Positions 8,071 to 63,480 of a stretch of 64,000 nucleotides of DNA are shown piece by piece (within the stretch, counting starts at the first letter, position 1; every line of letters starts with the position of its first letter). The notes under the pieces are model-generated. The model had not been told where the DNA came from, did not search any database, and saw nothing but the letters and a program-made list of their open reading frames with translations. The stretch spans positions 65,844,770 through 65,908,769 of the forward strand of contig NC_057718.1 of the NCBI RefSeq assembly GCF_004010195.1, given 5' to 3'. The translations under genes and the position numbers were made by a program. The stretch comes from Chiloscyllium plagiosum (Eukaryota).

Positions 8071-8431
8071 ATGTTGGAGGTGCTGTCTTTCAGAAGGGAC
8101 ATTATTTCTGTAGTTGAGATGGATGTGAAAGATACCACTGCACGATTTAAAAAAGAGAAGGAATTTATTTCTCTTGATCAATGTTCCTCCTTCAGCCAGA
8201 TTAATTAGTCATTCATCAAACAACCTTTTGTTAGGTGCTACATTTCGTTTAATAATGTTCGTGTGTGTGAAAACTTAGAGATATCTTTGAAAAATATGCA
8301 GTTAACTATGGTAGTTATTCATATATGGTAGTTTTCATATATTTCATACATGGAAACTGGCATATATTCTCAAAATCTTACATTGAATGTGATAGAGAAT
8401 AAATAAAACTTATGCTTTTCTAATCCTGCAG

Positions 8432-8786
8432 GCACCCTCTATTCCATCACTAACTGTGTCTGGTGAAACATCAAGTGCTTACTCTTCACCAGAAAGCTCC
8501 AGGAGATCAATTGCATCTGAAGCTTCATCATCACAATATTCTGATCAGGGGCTTGCCTCTATTAATTCCTTCAGTTCTGATTTTGGGGTTCAGTACTTTA
8601 CATCTGCTTTGCAGCCCTGTGTGGGATCTTCACAGCAAGAAATATGTGAACCTGCACAATCTGACCAAAAAAGGATTACCACTGGATCACATGAGAACTT
8701 GACTGCAGAAACCCCACAGTTCACTCCTACTGGAGAAAATACCAGGACAGCAGAACACTTGACAGCTCTAACCACATCTGTGAGAG
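8432..8786 (+). CDS. IPCEF1: Internal coding exon (Ser-rich linker) of IPCEF1/CNKSR-family gene
   Basis: Acceptor ttttctaatcctgcAG ends at 8431 and donor AG|GTAAGC starts at 8787. Open frame APSIPSLTVSGETSSAYSSPESSRR...TTSVR+G. Ends in phase 1, which joins the 36169 exon as GAA (Glu). Non-repetitive sequence. Assigned by phase and position; the peptide is low-complexity and not recognised on its own. Confidence 0.7.
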
Positions 8787-8954
8787 GTAAGCATGTGCAT
8801 TTAAAACAATATATTTTCAAAAGACGTTTCTTCCTTTTTGTAGAGACTAAGAATCTCTTGGCATCCAATGCACCAAGATAGCCTGACTGAGTGAATCTAG
8901 AATATGAGTGTTGAAAGGGTGACAATGATTAAGCAATCACTGCTTCCATCGATA

Positions 8955-12306: not shown

Positions 12307-12514
12307 TATCTACATACTAATCAGAAAATGTTCTTGTACACACTTAACAAATTCATCTCCAAACAAGCCCTTAAAAATATGGCAGTCATAGTCTATGTTT
12401 GGAAAGTTAAAATCCCCCAGCATAGCCACCCTATTATTCTTACAGAAAACTGAGATTTCCTTACAAATTTGTTTCTCAATTTCCTGCTGACTATTGGGGG
12501 GAGTGGGGGGAGTG

Positions 12515-13485
12515 NNNNNNNNNNNNNNNNNNNNNNNNNNNNNNNNNNNNNNNNNNNNNNNNNNNNNNNNNNNNNNNNNNNNNNNNNNNNNNNNNNNNNN
12601 NNNNNNNNNNNNNNNNNNNNNNNNNNNNNNNNNNNNNNNNNNNNNNNNNNNNNNNNNNNNNNNNNNNNNNNNNNNNNNNNNNNNNNNNNNNNNNNNNNNN
12701 NNNNNNNNNNNNNNNNNNNNNNNNNNNNNNNNNNNNNNNNNNNNNNNNNNNNNNNNNNNNNNNNNNNNNNNNNNNNNNNNNNNNNNNNNNNNNNNNNNNN
12801 NNNNNNNNNNNNNNNNNNNNNNNNNNNNNNNNNNNNNNNNNNNNNNNNNNNNNNNNNNNNNNNNNNNNNNNNNNNNNNNNNNNNNNNNNNNNNNNNNNNN
12901 NNNNNNNNNNNNNNNNNNNNNNNNNNNNNNNNNNNNNNNNNNNNNNNNNNNNNNNNNNNNNNNNNNNNNNNNNNNNNNNNNNNNNNNNNNNNNNNNNNNN
13001 NNNNNNNNNNNNNNNNNNNNNNNNNNNNNNNNNNNNNNNNNNNNNNNNNNNNNNNNNNNNNNNNNNNNNNNNNNNNNNNNNNNNNNNNNNNNNNNNNNNN
13101 NNNNNNNNNNNNNNNNNNNNNNNNNNNNNNNNNNNNNNNNNNNNNNNNNNNNNNNNNNNNNNNNNNNNNNNNNNNNNNNNNNNNNNNNNNNNNNNNNNNN
13201 NNNNNNNNNNNNNNNNNNNNNNNNNNNNNNNNNNNNNNNNNNNNNNNNNNNNNNNNNNNNNNNNNNNNNNNNNNNNNNNNNNNNNNNNNNNNNNNNNNNN
13301 NNNNNNNNNNNNNNNNNNNNNNNNNNNNNNNNNNNNNNNNNNNNNNNNNNNNNNNNNNNNNNNNNNNNNNNNNNNNNNNNNNNNNNNNNNNNNNNNNNNN
13401 NNNNNNNNNNNNNNNNNNNNNNNNNNNNNNNNNNNNNNNNNNNNNNNNNNNNNNNNNNNNNNNNNNNNNNNNNNNNNNNNNNNNN
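12515..13485. other. Assembly gap (N run)
   Basis: 971 N characters. Confidence 1.
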
Positions 13486-14357
13486 AACCTCCCGTGACAT
13501 AGGGAGGATATCCCTGGGACTAAGTCCAGCCGTGATGTTATATCTAATCAAAAATGCCATTCCCCCTACTCTCTTACCCCCCACCCCCGTACTTCCTGTA
13601 GTACTCCCAGAATATTAAGCTGCCAGTCCTGTCCATCCCTGAGCCATGTTTCTGTATTTGCTGTGCTATCCCAGTCTCATGTTCCTAACCAAGCCCTGAG
13701 TTCATCTGCCTTCCCTGTTAGGCCTCGTGTATTGAAATAAATGCAGTTTAATTTATCAGTCCTACCTCATTCTCTGCTTTGCTCCTGCCTGCCCTGACTG
13801 TTTAACATGCTCCTTTTCCCACCTGTAGTAGTCTCGGTCTGATCTCTTTCCTCACTAACTCCCTGGGACTCACCCATCCCCCTAACCTTGCTAGTTTAAA
13901 TCCTCCAAAGCAGCTCCAGCAAATCTCCCTGCCAGTGTATTAGTCCCCTTCCAATTCAGGTGCAATCTGTCCTTCTTATACAAGTCATTCTACCACTGAA
14001 GAGATTCCAATGATCCAAAAGTGTGAACCTTTTCCCCTGCACCAGCTCCCCAGCCACACATTCATCTGCACAATCCTCCTATTCCTACCTTCACTAGCTC
14101 ATAGCACTGGGAGTAATCCAGATACTACTATCCTCAAGGACCTCCTTTTTAAATTCCTGCCTAACTTCCTATATTCTCCCTTCAGAATCTCATCCTTTTT
14201 CCTTCCTATGTCATTAGTTCCAATAAATCCAATGATCTCCTGCTGGTCCTACTCCCCTTTGAAAATATTCTGCACTCTCTCTGAGATATCCTTTAACCTG
14301 GCACCAGGGAGGCAACACATCATTCTGATTTCTTGCTGTCTGTCTGTCTGTGCCCCT

Positions 14358-36168: not shown

Positions 36169-36356
36169 AACAACCACAGAATTCTGATGAAATGGAACAG
36201 TTATACAAATCCTTAGAGCAAGCCAGTCTTTCACCTATTGGAAAACGTCGGCTTTCATCAAGAAAGGACTACAGGAAATCCTTTATAAAACGTAGCAATA
36301 ATCCTATTGTCAATGAAAGATTGCACAAATTCAGAACTTTGAACAGTACTTTGAAG
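36169..36356 (+). CDS. IPCEF1: Penultimate coding exon of IPCEF1/CNKSR-family gene (start of C-terminal coiled-coil, cytohesin-binding region)
   Basis: Acceptor cctgtctttcAG, donor AAG|GTATAA. Peptide EQPQNSDEMEQLYKSLEQASLSPIGKRRLSSRKDYRKSFIKRSNNPIVNERLHKFRTLNSTLK closely matches the IPCEF1 C-terminal motif as recalled (DEMEKLYKSLEQASLSPLG...RTLNSTLK). CNKSR1/2 are paralogous here, so orthology needs checking. Confidence 0.88.
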
Positions 36357-42932: not shown

Positions 42933-43164
42933 GAGCTCTTTTATTACTTAGCAAACTGTTTTGAAGGGACAGCCCTGCCCTCTTTGGGAATTAAATTTTA
43001 TTCAAATGTAAGAAAATCCATGTGTCAAATATGCTTGCCTTAAAGAGAAATGCACTTACAGGATCTGGTATAATAGTATAAATTATTTTTACAGTGGCTA
43101 AACATGGTTGTCTGGATCATGGTAGTTATGGTTGATTTTTCTTTCTTTCCTCTGCATTAACTAG

Positions 43165-43287
43165 GCCAAAGAAGCAGACTTGGCAGTCATAAACCAACTC
43201 TTGGAAAGTTCGCACTTAACCTCAGAGAACTTCAGACAGTGGAAGGAAGATTACTCGTTGTTGATGCAGGATATCTGTAAAACATAG
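43165..43287 (+). CDS. IPCEF1: Terminal coding exon of IPCEF1/CNKSR-family gene
   Basis: Polypyrimidine tract followed by ctAG ending at 43164, phase 0. AKEADLAVINQLLESSHLTSENFRQWKEDYSLLMQDICKT* continues the family motif (IPCEF1-like KEHDLAMINQLL...WK...LLIQDI). Too short for the supplied ORF track. Confidence 0.88.
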   Translation, partial: AKEADLAVINQLLESSHLTSENFRQWKEDYSLLMQDICKT

Positions 43288-43973
43288 CAAGCTAAAACCT
43301 ATCCTGATAATAAAAATATTGCTTTGGAGGATCAGCCAACATCCTATGTAAAAACAGACATTTAAGAGTTGAGAATGACTTCATCAAAATATGGTACTTA
43401 ATTGCCTTAGTCAAGCTTTACAGCTTCATGAAGCACTAAGAGGCATTGGACTTCCAATCTGCTGATACTTCGAGCACAATGAAGGCCATCAAAAGATTAA
43501 TAGTAACTGGTGTGTTTAGAAATAGACATGTAAAGTCCTTTTTGTCTACAGTAAAGGACTTACAAATGATTATTTAACTTATGCACTATTGCACTGATAG
43601 TTGTGAGTTACTATTTTATTTGTAAGTATAAAAGATTCACAGGTGTGTGGTTGAGGACATTCTCCAGGTGAAAATACAATTGTGCATTCACATATTCTAT
43701 TTTTGTGAGATTTTATTTATTCTGCATTCAGTGTTGGGCTTCAAATGGTCACAGCTATTGAAACTCATTTTCACACAGCATAATATTTGATATGTGTGAA
43801 ATTTCATTGAAGGAAATGTGAAAATATTGATAATTTCTCAACTATAGACCAATTCGTGCATTTAATTCATTAGTTCCTGATGAAAGCAAACTTTGTAATT
43901 TGTACAGATGTGAACAAAGCTTACATTTACATTATATTTTAATTGTACTAATCAAAGCTGTGTCATAAAACAG

Positions 43974-43979
43974 AATAAA
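43974..43979 (+). promoter_or_regulatory. Likely polyadenylation signal of the host gene
   Basis: AATAAA ends about 690 nt of AT-rich, repeat-free 3'UTR-like sequence and is followed by a T-rich downstream element near 43992. Confidence 0.6.
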
Positions 43980-44582
43980 CTGTGAAAATGTTTTTTTTTT
44001 GGCTAGTTTCCATGTTCTGTATGTTCTATCTCCATACAAACCAACATAAGGCTGTGTGTACTCATCCCCTTCCCCAGTAGACATAGACTCATTGACTGTG
44101 TGTATTCAGAACCCTTTCCCAACAGGTATAGATCGTGCTAAGCTGTGTGCACTGTGCAATTATGCTGTGATAAAAATGATGAGAATATATTTGCCTGTGA
44201 CTTTCATCTGGTTAACTCAATAGTAGGAATCTCTTTAGTTGGCTAATTATGTACAATATGAATTCCACCCACACCAGACCACCCCCTTCCATTTTGAACC
44301 ACTGTGCATTCAAAGAAGCTGCAAATGCAAAGAAAATTCTAAAAATGGTGTGTGTTACATTTCAGGCCCTCTTGTCTACCTTCTATCTCCCCCGTCACCC
44401 ACACATATCTCCACCGCCATGACTCACACACTCCTCCCATCCACCCTCATCACTCTTGAGCCACCCAACATAACCATTCCTACCCCCTTGGTTACCTTTG
44501 AACCTTCCTGTTACCCTGGAACTGTAAACAATAACTGCCACAAGCCATCTCTCCCCTACATTCCTACATTTCTGATTGTTCC

Positions 44583-53568: not shown

Positions 53569-56500
53569 TATTATGACACAGAGGTGAACCTTTTCTGATA
53601 ATTAAACCAAAAAGTAGCTAATTCACCCTTCAATTTCATCATCGTCTTCTTGTAGCAGTACAGCTCCAATTCCTATATCGCTGAAAATCACACTATACTA
53701 GGTAATAGTCCAACAGGTTTATTTGGAAGTACTAGCTTTCGGAGCACTGCTTCTTCATCAGGTAGCTGATGAAGGAACAGTGCTCCAAAACCTAGTGCTT
53801 CCAAATAAATCTGTTGGACTATTACCTGATGTTGTGTGATTTTTAACTATCTCAACCCGAGTGCAACACCGGCATCGCTACATCCTATACCGCTAGCATC
53901 GATTGCAACTTTGAAAGGTTTCAAAAATATTGGTGTAACTAAAACTGGTACTGTGGTTAATATGGCTTTTAAATTCTCAAATGCCTCCTCACATTGTTCT
54001 GTCCACCAAGATTTTGTGATCTTCTTTAATCAATCCATTAGTGGTACCAAAACGTTGCTGAAATTTAGAACAAACATCCAGTAGAATCCGTTTAATCCCA
54101 AAGATTGATGCACCTCTTTCTTTGAGGATGGTCATGGAAATTCCTCGATGGCCTTTGTCTTCACATTCCTTGGAGTCAAACTTACATGTCCGATGTTATG
54201 TCTCAAGAACTTCATGAATTCTACTTTCTTTAAGTTTATTAAGCTTCTCGTAATCATTCAATGAGCTCTGCCAACTGTACCATGTGATCTTTCTATAACT
54301 CGCTAAGGATCACTGCATCATCTAGATAAACTGCACAACTTGTTAATCCAGCCATAACTCTGTTCATGAGACTTTGGAATGTGGCTGGTGGGTTCTTCAT
54401 TCTATAGGGCATCGCTTTGAATTGATATAGGCATTTGGGATTACAAACACAGAAACTTCTTTTGCTTTCTCTGATAGATACCTGCCAGTAACCACGCAGT
54501 AAATCTAACTTCGTTGTGTAAGTGGCTTGACAAACTTTCTCCATACAGTCCTCCAATCTTGGTATTGGATGGGAATCTGATTCTGTTACAGCATTGACCT
54601 TCCAATAGTCTATACAGGTTTGGGAACCAGCACAATCGGTGAACTCCACTCACTCTGACTTGGTTCAATATCTTCATTGAGTATCACATTCATTCTTTCT
54701 GGACCTGTATGACTGAGAGGATTAAGTTACTAGGGGTATTGTTTTATTGGAACAGCACTTCCTACTTCCACCTCATGCACAATAGTATTAGTCCTCCCCA
54801 TCTTATTCCTGCATAGGTCCTCATAGAACTGTAACAGACTTTTCAACTCAGTTCTTTGCTCCTGAGACAGACAGCTCACTAACCTATCCCACTCCTCAAG
54901 GGCTTCCTCATTATTTAACATATTTTGAGGCACATCAAAATTCACATCATCTGGATTTGATTCCTCACTCTACAGAGCAGTAACTGACACCTGTTTCTCC
55001 AGTTCCCTGCCTATTATAGTAAGGTTTAAAATAATCCACATGACATTGATACAGTTTTTTACCAGACAGTTTACCTGACTCAACTTTTTCTCTCTTTGAT
55101 AGGGGCCACTAAACCTGGCTTTGAAGGGATCTCCTACTACTGGTAACAATACTAATATGTCATCTCCACAGGAAAACAGTCAAATTTTAGAGTTTTATCT
55201 AACATCTGCTTCATACTATGCTGTGCTCTCTCCAGGCACTGTTTAGCTAACTCACCTGCAAGATTTAAGTTTTCCTTCACCTCAGATACATAATCCAAGT
55301 GTTAGATCTCCAACTTTGGTCCTATCAATTTTTCTTTAATTAATTTCAAATGCCTTTTTCTTCATGTCCAAATATTAACTCAAAGGGACTAAACTGAGTA
55401 GATTCATGTGGGGTATTTCTGATGGCAAACAATATGAATGGGATACCTTTATCCCAATCATTCAGATAATCCTGACACTACACTTTTAACATGGTCTTCA
55501 GGGTCTGATGCCACCTTTCAAAGGCTCCCTGGGATTCAAGATGATACTCACTTGATTTAAAGTGCTGTTATGGCTAAACTATTCATGACTTCCTTAAACA
55601 GCTTCGCAGTAAAATTAGACCCTTGAATCTCTCTGGGTAGCCCATATCAGGTAAAGAAAGCTACTAACTCCTCCACCACTGCTTTTGCCTTAATACTCAG
55701 TAATCTGGTAGACACATCCATTATGGTTAGTAGATATTGGTTCTCACTTTTAGTTTTAGGGGAAGGGGACCTACACAATCAATCACAACTCATGTGAAAG
55801 GTCCTTTAAATGCAGGAATTGGCAATGAAGGTGTTGTTTTTATTACTGCCTGTGGCTTACCTACCATTTGGCATGTATAACATGTATGGCAAAATTTAAC
55901 CACATTCTTGTGTGGTCTAGGCTAATAGAAGTGCTTTTGTACCTTAGCCTGAGTATTCCTCACACCTAGACGACCTCCAACTGGTAATCCATATGCTACC
56001 TGTAATACTTCCTGTCTGTATGCCACCGGCAACACAATCTGGTGCACTTCCGTCCATTTCTCCACTGCACTAACCTGCTGTGGTCTCCATTTTCATCTTT
56101 GGATTCGATTTTTAAGATAATTAACCCTCAGGAATCCATTCTGATTCCTTTTCTGAGAATGCATCAATAAATATATCTTTTATTGTCTCATCTTGCTGTT
56201 ATAAGTCCATTAGCCTTTCAGGACTAAACACTGACCCTCTGACCCTCAGGTTTTTCCTGCACCATTACATCAAACAGGATATCCACTAACTGAACCTCAA
56301 CTTCTTCATCTTTCTCTTTAGATTTTCCCTTATTGGGGTGACTTATGACAGTGGGAACTTGTTACAACAGAGTCTGGAAAACTTCCAGGGTATTTGTCTT
56401 TTAACTCCTCGGTTCCCTGGTTCTCCTTTGGCTTCTCCACCACAAGGGGCGACACTCCCACTTTGGATCCTGCCAGATTGTTCCCAAGAACAAACTGTAT

Positions 56501-59043
56501 TCCTGGAACTGGTACCCTATCAATCACTCTCACTGTTACTTTCCCAGTCTTGATTTGGCTCTCTAACCTGATCGTACACATGGAAACACTAAATTTCTGC
56601 CCATTTATTCCACAAATTACCACTCTCTCGGGTAATATGTCAGAGAATGCAAATACATTCATCTCTTACTATTAGAGACTAATTAGATCCTGTATTTCTC
56701 AAAATTGTAACTCCTTGCCCTTCTCCCCTGTTCTTCCCGAGTAAACTTTGCCGACAGAAGTGAAGTCTTTATACAGATCAGATATTAACTCAATACTCAG
56801 CCCCTGCCTAGGCTGTGCAATCTCCTGCAGCTCCTTGACTTTTCTTGGGGTTTCCTTTACTATTTCTACTAATACCACTGGCTTAGCCTCTTCATCATTT
56901 CCCACAGTGCTTTTCTTCAATGACCAGCACTGTGACTTAGTATATCCCACCTTACCACAGCAGAAATACTTGAGGCCTTTCACTCGTCTTCACTTCTTGG
57001 GCCTCATCTATCACTTATGGTAAACTATTCCTAGTGTGATCTACTGTTTGTTTTGTAGTGAAGGTTCTCCCCTTCTCCCAACTTTTATCCCTCACAGGAT
57101 GAAATTCCTGTCGGAAGCTAAATATCAACTTATGCACCAATATATATTCATCCACCATCACTGCCACGCTTGTAAATTTTTGAACTTTCTATTCATCCAC
57201 ATGAATTCGTACCATCTCTGGAAGTGAGTTTTTAAACTCCTCCAGCAGAATAATCTCTCTTAAAGCTTCATATGTCATATCAAAATTACTAAGTCTAATT
57301 CATTCGAATTAAACATAAGTCTGACCTAGTCCTTTCTTTATGTTTCTGAACCGCTGTCTATATGCTTCTGGTACCAATTTATAGGCACTCAAAATAGTCT
57401 GTTTGATATCTGCATAATCTCTGGACCCCTCATCTGATAACTCTGCAAATACCTCACTAGTCTTGCCTACCAGCTTAGTCTGAACTAGCATTACCCACAA
57501 GTTCTCTGGCCACTCCATCTGCCTAGCTAATATTTCATGTGAAATAAAGAAGGTTTCGACATCTTTCTCATCAAATGACAATGTTTTAACATATTGCATA
57601 CATCACTACATTCTCCCTACATCTCCATCCTGTTAACTTGACTTTCCTGACTAATTCGCAACATCTGAAGTTCAATTTCTCTCTCCCTTTCTCTTTCCTC
57701 TCTCTCTTAGTTCAACTAAAAACCTTCTCTCTCTTTCTCTTTCCTCTCTCTTTCTTTTTCCCCTCATATGGCTCTTCTTTCCCTTTTAACTCCATTTGCC
57801 TCAATTGCAATTTAAATTTTTCTAACCCAACTGCACTTGTCTGTTTCTCTGGTACACCTAAGTGCTTGATCAACTCCATTACATTTTCAGCTTTCCTCTG
57901 TCCCTGGTTAAACCCGATTATAACCTATTTGCTAATTCTAAAAGTATATCCTTCCTCTGTCTTCCTCAACTTTATTGGCAAATTTGGGAAGCATCTTCAA
58001 AGCCCAGAACCTCTTTAGCAATCTTAAGAGCCATTTCCCTCACTTTTAATTTAACCAACTACAAGTAACCAAAATTAAACACATTTTCTCACCTCAGCTT
58101 TATTTAAAGATCTAGGACATTAATCGCCAAGTGTTTAAATCTGCTGGGATCTTTCATACCCAAAATCAGTTCGAATCTGTCCAAATCTCAGACTGGATTT
58201 GTCTAAACCTGTCCAAATCTATCCAAATCTCAGACCCGAGACCTCAAAACCTGGGGTCAAAGGCAAACCTTTTCTGTTAATTAAACCAAACACCCAGAAA
58301 AGCTTGCCTGACCTTGTAATCTGTTAAAATGTGAGTGACAGAGAATTCCTAAATTCCACTATTTAAAGAAAACAACATCAATTTTTTTTTTACTCTAAAA
58401 GTGAACATTAAACACAAAAAACTATTCACAAATCTAAGCCCCCCTTCCCCTTAGCTGCTAACTCTCTGACTCCAAATCTTTAACAATATGCTATTCCAAT
58501 AAGATACTTATTAAAATTATATTAGCTTAATTTCAAAATCACAGAAGTCTTTGACTTCTGTGCTGTCTTCCACTTTCCTGCTGCTGATCTCCTTCTTCCT
58601 TTTTACTGCAAGTATGTATCATATGAAAAGATACCTTTGTTAGAGATTGTTTTCTAATTTCTTTGAGACTAAGATGTTAGATGGTCAATTAGTTCTCCAG
58701 TAGTTTCTCTCTCCATGGCAGTTGCTCTCTGACCAATTTTTAAAATGTCCACATTCTTATACCCCAACATTGAATCAATGAGATGATCCAATGTTAGGAA
58801 AACAAATCAATTCAAACTCAATTGGGTTTTGGTATCCAGGGGCATAATTCAAACCGATTGGTTAAGTGTGAATTGCTGTCAAAAAAGCAACCAAAACTCA
58901 AGGTATCCATTTCACAACCAAATGTTACATATATTCAATTTTATGGTATGCTCTGGAACTGTCATCTGGTCAGATACACTGGTGCTTATAATCTCTCAGC
59001 ATTCTCTCTTAAAAAATATAGTTGTACCTTCAACTTAATAACA
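53569..59043 (-). mobile_element. Gypsy LTR retrotransposon, Gmr1-like (gag-PR-INT-RT-RH), decayed
   Basis: 5' LTR about 58250-59043. Gag with LVPEAYRQRFR and CxxCx4(H/Y)x4C knuckle. PR about 56450-56690, INT about 55400-56050, RT 54250-54950 (LDLLRGYWQV, AVYLDD). Only about 45 bp of the 3' LTR end survive at 53569. 4-bp TSD GTAT at 53565-53568 and 59044-59047. Confidence 0.9.
53683..53882. mobile_element. Fold-back mini-insertion, hammerhead family B, nested in the Gypsy element
   Basis: Arms meet at cttcatcag-gtag-ctgatgaag. TSD TCCTATA(T/C)CGCT at 53671-53682 and 53883-53894. Confidence 0.88.
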
Positions 59044-59097
59044 GTATCATTTAAAGCCATATTGCTTTAAACCAAAGCAGCAAATACTTAGGACATC

Positions 59098-60055
59098 AAG
59101 ACCATGAGATGTAGGAGCAACACTAGAGCATTCAGCCCATCATGTCTGTTCCATCATTCAATGAGATCATGACTGATCTGGTAATCTTCAATTCAATTTT
59201 TCTGCCCTTTCCCCAATGTCCCTGATTCACTTATTGATTAAAAATCTGGCAATCTCAGTCTTGAATATACTTAATAGCCCAACCTCAATACCCTCCTACA
59301 GTGATGAATTCCACAGATTCTCTATACTCTTAGAGGAGAAATTCCTCCTAATCTCTGTCTTAAGTGCATTTATTCTGGTGCTAGACTCTCCCACTGGGAA
59401 AACAAACTTTCTGCATCTACCCTGTCATGTTGCTTATGAATCTTGCATGCTTCAATAAGGTTACCTCACATTCTTTAAAATTCCAATCATTATGGAATCC
59501 AAACCTGTTCACAGTTGTCCAGCTATGGTCTGACTAGCGTCTTGTGTACTTCTAGCCTATTTTTATACTCCATTTCCTCCAAAAGGCCAACATTTCTTTT
59601 GCCTTCCCCTATTAACCACTGATCTTGGATGTTAGCTTTTTGCGATTCATGGGCAAGGACTCCAAAATCCCTCTATTCTGTAGCTTTCTGCAGTATTTCT
59701 CTATTTAAATAAGATTCAGCTCCTCTATTCTACCTGCCAAATTGCACATTTCGCACTTCATATTCCATCTGGTAAGTTTTTGCCAACTCCGTTAGCCTGT
59801 CTATATCCCTCTACGGACACTTTTGTTTTGTTAACCCCACCACTTGCCTTTGCTCCTATTGTCATGTTATTTACAAACTTATCTACAATAGATTCATTTA
59901 CCTCATCCAAGTCATTAACGTATATTGTAAATAATTGTGGCCCCATACTGATCACTGTGACACTTCACTAGTTGTAGGTGCCAGAATGAAAATAAATTCC
60001 TTATCTCAATTCTCTGTCACCTACTAGTTAGGCCAGCCTCTAGCCATGATAATAG
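59098..60055 (-). mobile_element. Old CR1 3' fragment
   Basis: MGPQLFTIYVNDLDE plus CR1 3'UTR. Confidence 0.8.
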
Positions 60056-60670
60056 ACTAGAATAGAATAGCCTTAATTGTCATGTGCACTTGAATGAGTG
60101 CAGTGAAAAGTTTATAATGTCACCTCTTGGTGCCATCTTAGCTACAGGGTACCTAGGTACAAGTACTTTAAGTGTTGTCACAGAATTGAAATAATAACAA
60201 AATAGATTAGCATGGGAAAACAGAGTTTAAAAGTCCAGAATGAGCATAAAAAGTGCTTATAAAATACTCGAGTTATTGGTCTTGTAACCTTTTCACAACA
60301 CGAGTCCGTGCCCACTGGGCTTCAGAACATGAGGCCATGCTGTGTCCAAGTGCTGGCCTCTATCTAGCACTCACTCTGCTGCTGCTCCACAATCTGGCCA
60401 CGACTCACTCTGCTCTCGCTCCAGTCTCTGGCCATGACTCGCTCTGCTCCCCCCTCCGGGACTCGGTCCGTGAGCTCTGATCCCCCCCGGGTTCTGAACT
60501 TGTCTCCCTTTGTCTTGCCTCCATTCTCCAGATAGTGTTGGGTAGTTTAGAAAGTTGGGGGCAGGGGAAGAAAAAACTGCTGCAAAGAGGGAAAAATGGA
60601 AAGAAAAAGAAAAAGGTACTGATGAAGAGAGGAGCTCTGACTAGAGTGTCTTACTCTGTCGCCATCTTAG
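60056..60670 (-). mobile_element. Second copy of the unclassified AAGATGGC-headed non-autonomous element
   Basis: Reverse complement starts aagatggcgacagagtaagacactc...gagctc and ends ttttcactgcac...acatgacaattaaggc(tattc)n. Confidence 0.65.
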
Positions 60671-60674
60671 AGTC

Positions 60675-60900
60675 TTAGAGACGTACAGCACAAAAACAAA
60701 CGCTTCGATCCAACTTGTCCATGCTGACCACATATTGTAAATTAATCTAGTCCTGTTTCCCAGCACTTGGCCCATATGCCTCTAAACCCTTCCTATTCAT
60801 CCAGATGCCTTTCAAATATGATAATTATACCAGCCTCCACAACTTCCTCTAGCACCTTATTCCGTACACGCATTATCCTCTGCATGAAAAAGTTGCCCTT
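60675..60900 (-). mobile_element. CR1 3' tail fragment
   Basis: Homologous to 9830-10055. Confidence 0.8.
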
Positions 60901-63480
60901 GTGGTGGAGAAGCCAAAGGAAAAACAGGGAACTGAGGAGTTAAAAGACAAATACCCTGGAATTTTTCAAGACTCTGTAATAACAAGATCCCACTGTCATA
61001 AGCCACAGCAAGAAGGAAAAACTAAAGAGAAAGATGAAGGAATTGAGGTTCAGTTAGCGGACACCTTGTTTGACGTAATGTACAGGAAAAACCTGAACAG
61101 GCAGAAGTGTTTAGTCTTGAAAACTAATGAGCATGCAAAAGATAGAAGAGACAATAAAAGTTATATGTGTTGCTGAGTATTCAGAAAAGGAGGCAGAGAA
61201 TATTCCTGAGGGTTATTACCTCAAAAATAGAATCCTAAGATGAAAATGCAGATGACAGCAGGTTAGTGCAGAGGACAAATGGGCAGAAGTGCGCAGATTG
61301 TGTTGCCGGCAGCATACAGACAGGAAGTTTTACGAGTAGCACATGAACTACCTGTAGGAGGTCACCTACGTGTACAGGAGACTCAGGCGAAGGTACAAAA
61401 GCATTTCTAATGGCCTGGAATGCACAAGAATGTGGTCAACTTTTGCCGTACATGTTATACATGTCAAATGGTAGGTAAGCCACAGGCGGTAATAGAACCA
61501 GCATCTTTGTTGCCAATTGCCACGTTCGAAGAACCCTTTTACGCGTGTTATGGGTTGATTGTGTAGGTCCCTTCCCGAGAACTGAAAGTGGGAACCAGTA
61601 CTTGTTAACCATAATGGATGCGTCTACCAGATTTCTGGAGGCAATTCCATTATGGAGTATTAAGGCAAAAAGGATGGTAGAAGAGTTAGTAGCTTTCGTC
61701 ACATGGTATAAGCTACCCAGAGAGATTCAGTCAGACCATGGGTCTAATTTTACTGCAACGCTGTTTAAGGAAGTCATGGATAGCTTAGGTATACAGCACC
61801 TTAAATCAAGTGTGCATCATCCTGAATGGAAAGGTGGCATCAGATCCTGAAGACCATGTTGAGAGTATATTGTCAGGATTACCCAAATGATTGGGATAAA
61901 GGTATCCCATTCGTATTGTTTGCCATTAGAGATGCCTCAAATGAATCATAGGGAATGCTGTTCTGATAAAACAACACCCCGACAAGCTTAATCCTTTCAA
62001 AGCCAGACAGGTTCAGAAGGAAGTGGAGGTGATGCTCAACAAAGATATCATTGAACCGAGTTACAGCGAATGGAGTTCACTGTTCGTGTTAGTTCCCACA
62101 GCTGATGGACTCGATGATTTTGTGTGGATTATCAAAAGGTCAATGCCATAACAAAACCGGACTCATACTGAGATTGGAGGACTGTATAGAGAAAGTTGGA
62201 CAAATCACAATGTTTAACTTACTGCATGGTTATGGGCAGGTACCTTTATCGGAGAAAACAAAAGAAATTTCTGTGTTTGTAACCCCAAATGGGCTAAATC
62301 AATTCAAACTTTGGAATGAAGAACACACCCACCTCATTCCAAAGACTCATGAACAGAGTTGTGGCTGAGTTAGCAAACTATGCCATCTATTTGGATGATG
62401 TAGTGATCTTTAGTGACTCCTGGAAAGGTCACACAGTACAGTTAGCAGAGTTCTTTGAATGATTAAGAGAAGCAAAACTGGCAATAAATTTACAGAAAAC
62501 AGAATTTGCGAAAGTAGAGGTGACATTCTTGCAACATGACATCATTCAAGGTTGACTCCAAGGAACGCAGAGATGAAGAATTTCCATGATCAACCTCGAA
62601 TAAAGAGGTGCTTCAATTTTTGAGACAAAGCAGATTCTACTGGAAGTTTGTTCCAAACTTCAGCAGTCTAATGGCACCATTAACTTAGATTAATGTCCTA
62701 TGTATGTAATGTTAATGTAGTTAAGAAATAGAAAAAAAAGCCATCTTTTCATTATTTTGGTTTGGGGAGGTGTTGTGGAGTTGAAGGCATGTACTGTACC
62801 TTTGAGAAAGAGTGAAAGTTGAAAAGTTGGCAAACCTGTCATGTGACTGACTGTAGGCACAGTGTGTGCTGGATAATTTGAAGATTTAACATTTGAGATG
62901 TAGCTCAGGTACTGAGTTGTTTACACAACAATTTGAATTCAACCACTCAGGTTAAAAATGCCCCAAGTTATTAATGCCCAATCGAATTTGAATTTTACTG
63001 TTTTGACAACATCAAACCAATGAGATGATCCAATGTTTTGGGGTATAAAAGCAGGCATTTTGGACAGTTAGCTGGAGAAAGAGCACCTTCTGCTATCAAA
63101 CGGCTGCTATTTAAACACATTCTCTGTGAAAGGTACCTTTTTCATATGAAACATCTTTGCAGCAGAAGACCGAAGATAACCAAGGAAGATACAGAGGAGG
63201 ATCGACACACTGGCTGGTTTTGAAAATTGATTTTCTGTAAATTTAATAGAGGCTTTATTGGATCAGTATATTGTTATAGAGTGGGAGATGGATACATTGT
63301 GAAGACAAAGTTGTTGTTTAATGTCCTCTTTTGGAGTTAAAGAATAAATTGTTAATTTTTTTCTTTAAATAGTGGAATTTAGGTAGTTCTCTGTCACTCA
63401 TTCTTTAACAGATTATGAGGTGAGGTAAGGTTTTCTGTGTGTTTGTTCAATGAGCAGAAGGGTTTCCCCGTGTTGTAACA
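60896..63480 (+). mobile_element. Second Gmr1-like Gypsy copy, 5'-truncated with internal deletions (INT, RT, PPT, 3' LTR)
   Basis: VDCVGP...YLLTIMD..TRF.EAIPL...IQSDHGSNF integrase precedes RT (LEDCIEKVG, IYLDD). Purine tract GGGGAGG is followed by an LTR TGTT...AACA at 62771-63480 homologous to 58250-59043. Confidence 0.9.

Follow-up and report, generated by a model that had tools for sequence, protein, structure and literature searches.

A derived TAG in the last exon of Chiloscyllium plagiosum IPCEF1 and the probable loss of a C-terminal PDZ ligand

In the window analysed here, a 64,000-nucleotide stretch of Chiloscyllium plagiosum DNA, a coding frame ends at a TAG (43285-43287) that is followed in the same frame by 25 sense codons, QAKTYPDNKNIALEDQPTSYVKTDI (43288-43362), and then by a TAA (43363-43365), all on the + strand. 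The tail ends in VKTDI, and its T-D-I, or K-T-D-I, fits the class I PDZ ligand x-S/T-x-hydrophobic as defined in PMC7138185, as an earlier note on this DNA had claimed; the product truncated at the TAG, which ends in ICKT, does not fit. The locus thus raises the question of whether the TAG is an error of the assembly, a switch through which ribosomes pass to make a PDZ-binding isoform, or a nonsense change that has shortened the gene.

The stop codon and its transcripts

The stop lies in the context ACA-TAG-CAA-GCT (ACA-TAG at 43282-43287), and the TAG and tail share the frame of the last coding exon, which begins in phase 0 at 43165, behind an acceptor AG at 43163-43164. Sequence similarity identifies the gene as IPCEF1, which corresponds to the C-terminal half of CNK3/IPCEF1. 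The 40 residues of the last exon matched seven proteins among 12 candidates, all of them from sharks and six of the seven named IPCEF1, and orthology is further indicated by PF00169 (PH) on the cluster of the C. punctatum protein P0002 and by exons of the cytohesin-binding CRAC region in the window, the PH exons lying outside it. The + strand carries an internal coding exon for a Ser/Thr-rich disordered region (8432-8786, with AG/GT edges; about residues 197-314 of XP_043552061.1, and identical by tblastn to protein P0010 at 119/119 residues), the penultimate exon, which encodes the first part of the CRAC region and ends in its TLK motif (36169-36356; identical to residues 315-377 of P0010), and the coding part of the last exon with the rest of the CRAC helices (43165-43284; 40/40 residues identical to both P0010 and P0002). 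The RefSeq protein XP_043552061.1 (C. plagiosum, 417 aa) is identical over the exons at 8432-8786, 36169-36356 and 43165 onward and already ends at DICKT, at the TAG of the window; with the same exons and the same end, the record gives the short product only.

For the last exon, the tail and the frame at 8396-8878 Pfam gave no match that passed the cut-off, a single DUF4219 match (E 0.026) falling below it, and the search of solved structures found no relative of the C-terminal region, with four weak unrelated matches. The literature search returned no paper naming IPCEF1 together with Chiloscyllium plagiosum, and none tying IPCEF1 to stop-codon readthrough. Elsewhere in the window a gap in the assembly fills about 1 kb with N (at about 12500-13500), and the list of open reading frames, inspected by eye, shows that the introns contain numerous broken reverse transcriptase and endonuclease frames of LINE type, and Gypsy-like pieces near 54300-61850. 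In C. punctatum, isoform X3 (P0011, 352 aa) leaves after the Ser/Thr-rich exon into a different last exon, and has neither the CRAC region nor the PDZ ligand.

Part of the stretch was present in 20 of the 24 sequencing runs listed, none of these 20 being recorded as an RNA run, and contigs bridging the TAG came from X3 and X14, which represent organism A in two studies, and from X15, which represents organism B in a third, under two species labels. About 2 in 100 of the raw single-cell RNA run X22 yielded no reads from the stretch, and neither that run nor X18-X20 (organism C, share 0.35) bears on the TAG. Spliced contigs of all three informative runs carry TAG, with no other letter at 43285-43287; they bridge it with more than 100 letters on each side, at depths of 417, 35 and 12. 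These contigs are considered spliced because all three start at 43163 with a loose end that equals the 3' end of the preceding exon (36169-36356); no joint or loose end marking another acceptor occurs in the three contig sets. The X14 contig (43163-43992) ends in 21 non-templated A, placing the poly(A) site near 43992, 13 nt past an AATAAA at 43974-43979, and giving a 3'UTR of 43366-43992.

Variants in the 3'UTR of the organism A contigs at 43613, 43623 and 43648 (A>G and T>G in X14, T>C in X3) place the TAG on at least three haplotypes. The organism B contig differs from the window at one of 450 nt (43293 T>C, silent in the tail frame), and so gives the TAG no phylogenetic depth. The shares of the runs, 0.94, 0.85 and 0.70, agree with the 0.94, 0.85 and 0.71 predicted from introns, ends and SNPs under even sampling; a guessed word-sampling rule for the run index, which gives the total of 54 but predicts 52, 47 and 38 where 51, 46 and 38 were observed, was dropped. 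Contigs hide rare alleles, and fixation of the TAG is what we infer from them.

The earlier note had allowed that the TAG might be a consensus error and had proposed looking at reads and RNA at 43285, where the contigs of X3, X14 and X15 all have TAG. Nothing was found in favour of such an error, although the congener C. punctatum has Tyr at the site; three bridging contigs from separate studies agree with the window, every covering run carrying the TAG, and a fault of the assembly is next to impossible. The TAG is real, it is present in spliced mRNA, and comparison with relatives shows it to be derived.

The ancestral C-terminus

The comparison set, which excluded C. plagiosum, comprised 14 named cartilaginous fishes. 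None has a stop at the position of the TAG, and all 14 have a sense residue there; in 13 the sense residue is followed by Gln and then by an end exactly 25 residues on, so that the TAA at 43363-43365 marks an end position common to 13/13 same-length orthologues. The first stop is not conserved beyond close relatives, being shared with organism B only. An open frame of 25 codons is not in itself rare, the chance at local 3'UTR composition being about 0.13; that the frame is more than chance follows from its homology to the C-termini of relatives, with 21 of 25 residues identical to the C-terminus of C. punctatum and 22 of 25 to that of Hemiscyllium. Judged by these alignments the tail is the ancestral C-terminus, and here the earlier note, which had said as much and had suggested a comparison across chondrichthyans, is borne out; by the test that it set, in which a sense codon in relatives would support recent truncation, the result favours truncation.

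Tyr occupies the site (residue 418) in all four other carpet sharks, C. punctatum, Hemiscyllium, Stegostoma and Rhincodon, and lies one base from TAG; the change is thus read as Tyr to stop, TAY>TAG, the codon being deduced from the residue of the relatives, and the CAG>TAG mutation offered earlier is refuted. Because Gln directly follows the site in 13/13 same-length orthologues, the Gln codon is ancestral, and UAG-CAA is an inherited context that needs no selection for leakiness. A class I PDZ ligand ends 11 of the 13 same-length chondrichthyan orthologues, mostly as ETDI or ETDV, the exceptions being Mobula and Rhinoraja. Representatives of 50% clusters (201 matches) added nothing new on the stop. 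The remaining relative, Heptranchias, has a model that diverges after DICK. This protein (H. perlo P0142, 1081 aa) is a fused CNK3-IPCEF1 model in a shark, lacking the ligand, and its end may reflect either a faulty gene model or another independent loss close to the same site.

When changes are polarised with C. punctatum and Hemiscyllium as references, two fall in the 25-residue tail of the window lineage, I>V and E>K, both in the ligand, against one in the 417 residues of the body, or two if a site that differs in all three is counted; the excess of tail over body has p = 0.009 or p = 0.017, respectively. The two changes are adjacent, and p rises to 0.16 if they are counted as one event. 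No tail excess is found in the other two lineages (5 body and 1 tail; 13 and 0), and one further tail site differs in the window, C. punctatum and Hemiscyllium alike. Glu stands at -3 in 159 of the 163 motif-bearing matches among those listed (72/75 and 87/88) and is K in the window; both window residues, V and K, occur in Mustelus, whose frame is intact and ends in VKTDV. Decay of the tail in the window lineage is thus no more than suggested, and, given the Mustelus end, the tail may still be a working ligand. On purifying selection in the tail after the stop arose, two amino-acid changes among its 25 residues (p = 0.017, or 0.16 if taken as a single event) stand against one silent change in organism B, a single site that has no power.

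What the stop would remove

In an AlphaFold2 model of P0002 (52 sequences; mean pLDDT 59.5, about 80-93 over residues 361-420) helices are predicted at residues 360-391, 397-406 and 408-417, and residues 422-443 appear as a low-confidence coil with pLDDT below 50. The stop is codon 418 and the last predicted helix ends at 417; because it falls just past this helix, the TAG is predicted to remove a disordered linker and the PDZ ligand alone. A comparison is provided by CNK2A (CNKSR2), a paralogue of IPCEF1/CNK3, in which a CRAC region is likewise followed by a linker and an E-S/T-x-hydrophobic end. According to the passages of PMC10272126 that treat it, cytohesin binding depends on L955 and TLK 961-963 within the CRAC region, SCRIB binding requires ETHV and stops when ETHV is deleted, and only mutants in SAMD12 and cytohesin binding are named there as failing to rescue migration. 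In contrast to the IPCEF1 case, CNK2 forms A and B are described in those passages as arising by splicing and not by a stop, and the CNK overview in them names a PDZ motif for CNK2A only. Cytohesin binding by CNK3/IPCEF1 is confirmed in PMC9104363. The IPCEF1 residues matching the TLK of CNK2A lie 43 residues before the new end, and by analogy the 417-aa protein should still bind cytohesins but lack the PDZ tether. The literature passages found on CNK proteins name no PDZ partner of the IPCEF1 tail. Shark CNK2-type proteins keep ETHV (Stegostoma, Scyliorhinus; P0185, P0189), and this paralogue may cover the function of the lost ligand.

Sequence comparison shows a class I ligand in IPCEF1/CNK3 across jawed vertebrates, in sharks, coelacanth, teleosts, lizards, birds and marsupials, in the variants ETDI/V, ETSL/V, ESTI, ESAI and ESSI, and suggests that it has been lost many times. 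Among the best 120 of 229 IPCEF1 matches, 75 have a class I end; the ligand is lacking in 45 (11 flagged partial, 34 not), and the 34 include proteins of frogs, a caecilian, snakes, turtles, a crocodile, two placental mammals and two batoids, counts that come from unevenly sampled, bird-heavy gene models and are not a number of independent losses. To judge from these matches the ligand is dispensable in many lineages, but its loss is not obviously neutral, since it is kept in 11/13 chondrichthyan orthologues and in 88 of 94 longer CNK2 and CNK3-IPCEF1 matches. What the earlier note said of tail lengths and ends in the family was about right: 40 of these 94 end in the ETHV named for CNKSR2, and IPCEF1 orthologues mostly run 28-29 residues past DI(C/Y). 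Among the proteins retrieved, one other, the Tetraodon model P0191, ends as close to DIC as the C. plagiosum product.

Short ends of other kinds were also seen. IPCEF1 of Pelodiscus (P0108, P0118) and Emydura (P0138), which are distantly related turtles, ends 16 residues past D-I/V-Y without a ligand, and a common old stop is possible; if a conserved second open reading frame follows it, the turtle stop would be a better candidate for readthrough than that of the shark. Pelusios P0126 has a different, longer end. Five snake proteins (P0060, P0074, P0075, P0078 and P0084), three of them flagged partial, end three residues before Candoia P0061, inside the former ligand, and many frog IPCEF1 proteins end 18-21 residues past the D-I/V-Y position.

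Truncation weighed against readthrough

Recent lineage-specific truncation of IPCEF1 is very probably the explanation, and the lineage-specific nonsense change listed among the options of the earlier note is accordingly the best account, none of the 14 named relatives stopping there. TAY>TAG would have arisen in the last exon of IPCEF1 after the split from C. punctatum, and would now be fixed or nearly fixed. A stop in the last exon should escape nonsense-mediated decay, with which the polyadenylated X14 contig is in line, and ribosomes would end at DICKT. The 417-aa product would retain the PH domain and all of the helical, cytohesin-binding CRAC region; missing from it would be only the disordered tail of 26 residues that carries the class I PDZ ligand, and with that tail, probably, a tether to PDZ scaffolds (of the SCRIB type, if CNK2A is a guide). 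Having become 3'UTR, the 25 codons would be too young to have decayed.

The same sequence could represent a readthrough isoform caught at birth, the new UAG having fallen between an existing A (at -1) and CAA (CAAG at +4 to +7) and been leaky from the start, with a minority of IPCEF1 keeping the PDZ ligand as a tether controlled by dosage or tissue and a minor PDZ-binding isoform still selected. This we consider improbable. The frame is intact to the ancestral TAA, the in-frame second open reading frame has a coding signature, the class I T and I are kept, the VKTD end recurs in the intact Mustelus orthologue, and the organism B change is silent in the tail frame; but an intact frame is expected anyway behind a young stop, the coding signature would be fully explained by coding ancestry, and the E at -3 that prevails among the motif-bearing matches listed has changed to K. 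C is the most permissive +4 base, and UAG-C the leakiest UAG context, according to PMC10954755, and the earlier note had seen a leaky signal in UAG-CAA. The C at +4 and a partial match stand, whereas CARYYA is matched at only four of six positions (CARNBA at five of six), neither the window nor organism B has the A at +9, and CAA is accounted for by the ancestral Gln codon. The stimulatory motifs given in the part of PMC4132726 concerned are UGA-CUAG, UAG-CARYYA and CARNBA, the window's stop not being UGA, and all six bases of CARYYA are reported there to matter in a human-cell reporter. No 3' RNA structure better than that of shuffled sequence was found over 43285-43435 (151 nt; z = +0.76, 152 of 200 shuffles as good), pseudoknots lying outside the model, and the strongest duplex that the stop region can form with the 3'UTR was weaker than 179 of 200 shuffles.

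A precedent for leakage exists in the zebrafish csad allele sa9430, where, according to PMC5484112 in the part concerned, full-length protein was reported despite a premature UAG 20 codons before the normal stop. It resembles the window in being a UAG near a gene end in a fish, flanked by A at -1 and by a pyrimidine at +4, but it is a laboratory-strain allele of a Gln codon with its readthrough protein seen, whereas the window has a natural change of a Tyr codon known from sequence. Genes such as OPRL1 and OPRK1 (UGA-CUAG) and the insect candidates of Jungreis et al. 2016 share the in-frame, coding-like second open reading frame, but as described their first stop is conserved across a clade, often with a full motif or structure, and that of the window is young. 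The yeast context discussed in PMC13192750 is Q-stop-Q, whereas Thr precedes the window stop. Jungreis et al. (PMC5100048) exclude stops confined to close relatives, regarding them as probably recent nonsense mutations behind which a coding signature persists although no readthrough occurs, and to judge by its distribution the TAG fits this class. Programmed readthrough is therefore unsupported, with the stop absent in 14/14 relatives, the +4 C inherited, the motif incomplete and 3' structure not found. Some leak is plausible, and basal leak at UAG-C may yield traces of the long protein without a selected switch.

That the TAG segregates, a Tyr allele persisting in the species and the window holding a common or captive-stock allele, is very unlikely. 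Only three of the 20 runs with part of the stretch were informative, and contigs drop rare variants; yet the TAG was found in three studies and under two species labels despite differing 3'UTR haplotypes. X1 and X2 contain all 54 sampled words, and with even sampling the probability that every word misses the stop is about 0.04, although the window may derive from one of these two runs. UAG is a preferred ADAR triplet, and the stop might be bypassed in RNA, either through A-to-I editing that turns UAG into a Trp codon or through splicing to the TAG as an acceptor, which at 43287 would keep the frame and skip 123 nt. A weak inverted repeat (19 nt, 74%) spans the stop, but the three spliced contig sets have no other letter at 43286 and no joint or loose end at 43288, no pyrimidine tract precedes the TAG, and the duplex with the 3'UTR is the weak one described above; editing and a cryptic acceptor were rejected on the contig, inverted-repeat and duplex results, and a bypass of either kind is exceedingly improbable. 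Truncation, by contrast, has on its side the derived stop, the TAG in 3/3 runs, the inherited CAA, the incomplete motif, the lack of 3' structure found and the position of the stop at a helix end, and there is good reason for confidence in it.

The locus has the look of a gene shortened in the ordinary way and not of a programmed switch for readthrough, and it carries a caution for scans, in that a coding-like second open reading frame behind UAG-C can be merely the mark of a young stop. Were the readthrough account true, the birth of a readthrough isoform would be dated to within one genus, and it would be a vertebrate case that arose from a stop inserted in coding sequence and not by extension into a UTR. 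As a truncation, it amounts to a natural and clean deletion of a single short linear motif that sets apart two sharks of one genus, both kept in laboratories, a pair that would be useful for asking what role the PDZ ligand of IPCEF1 plays.
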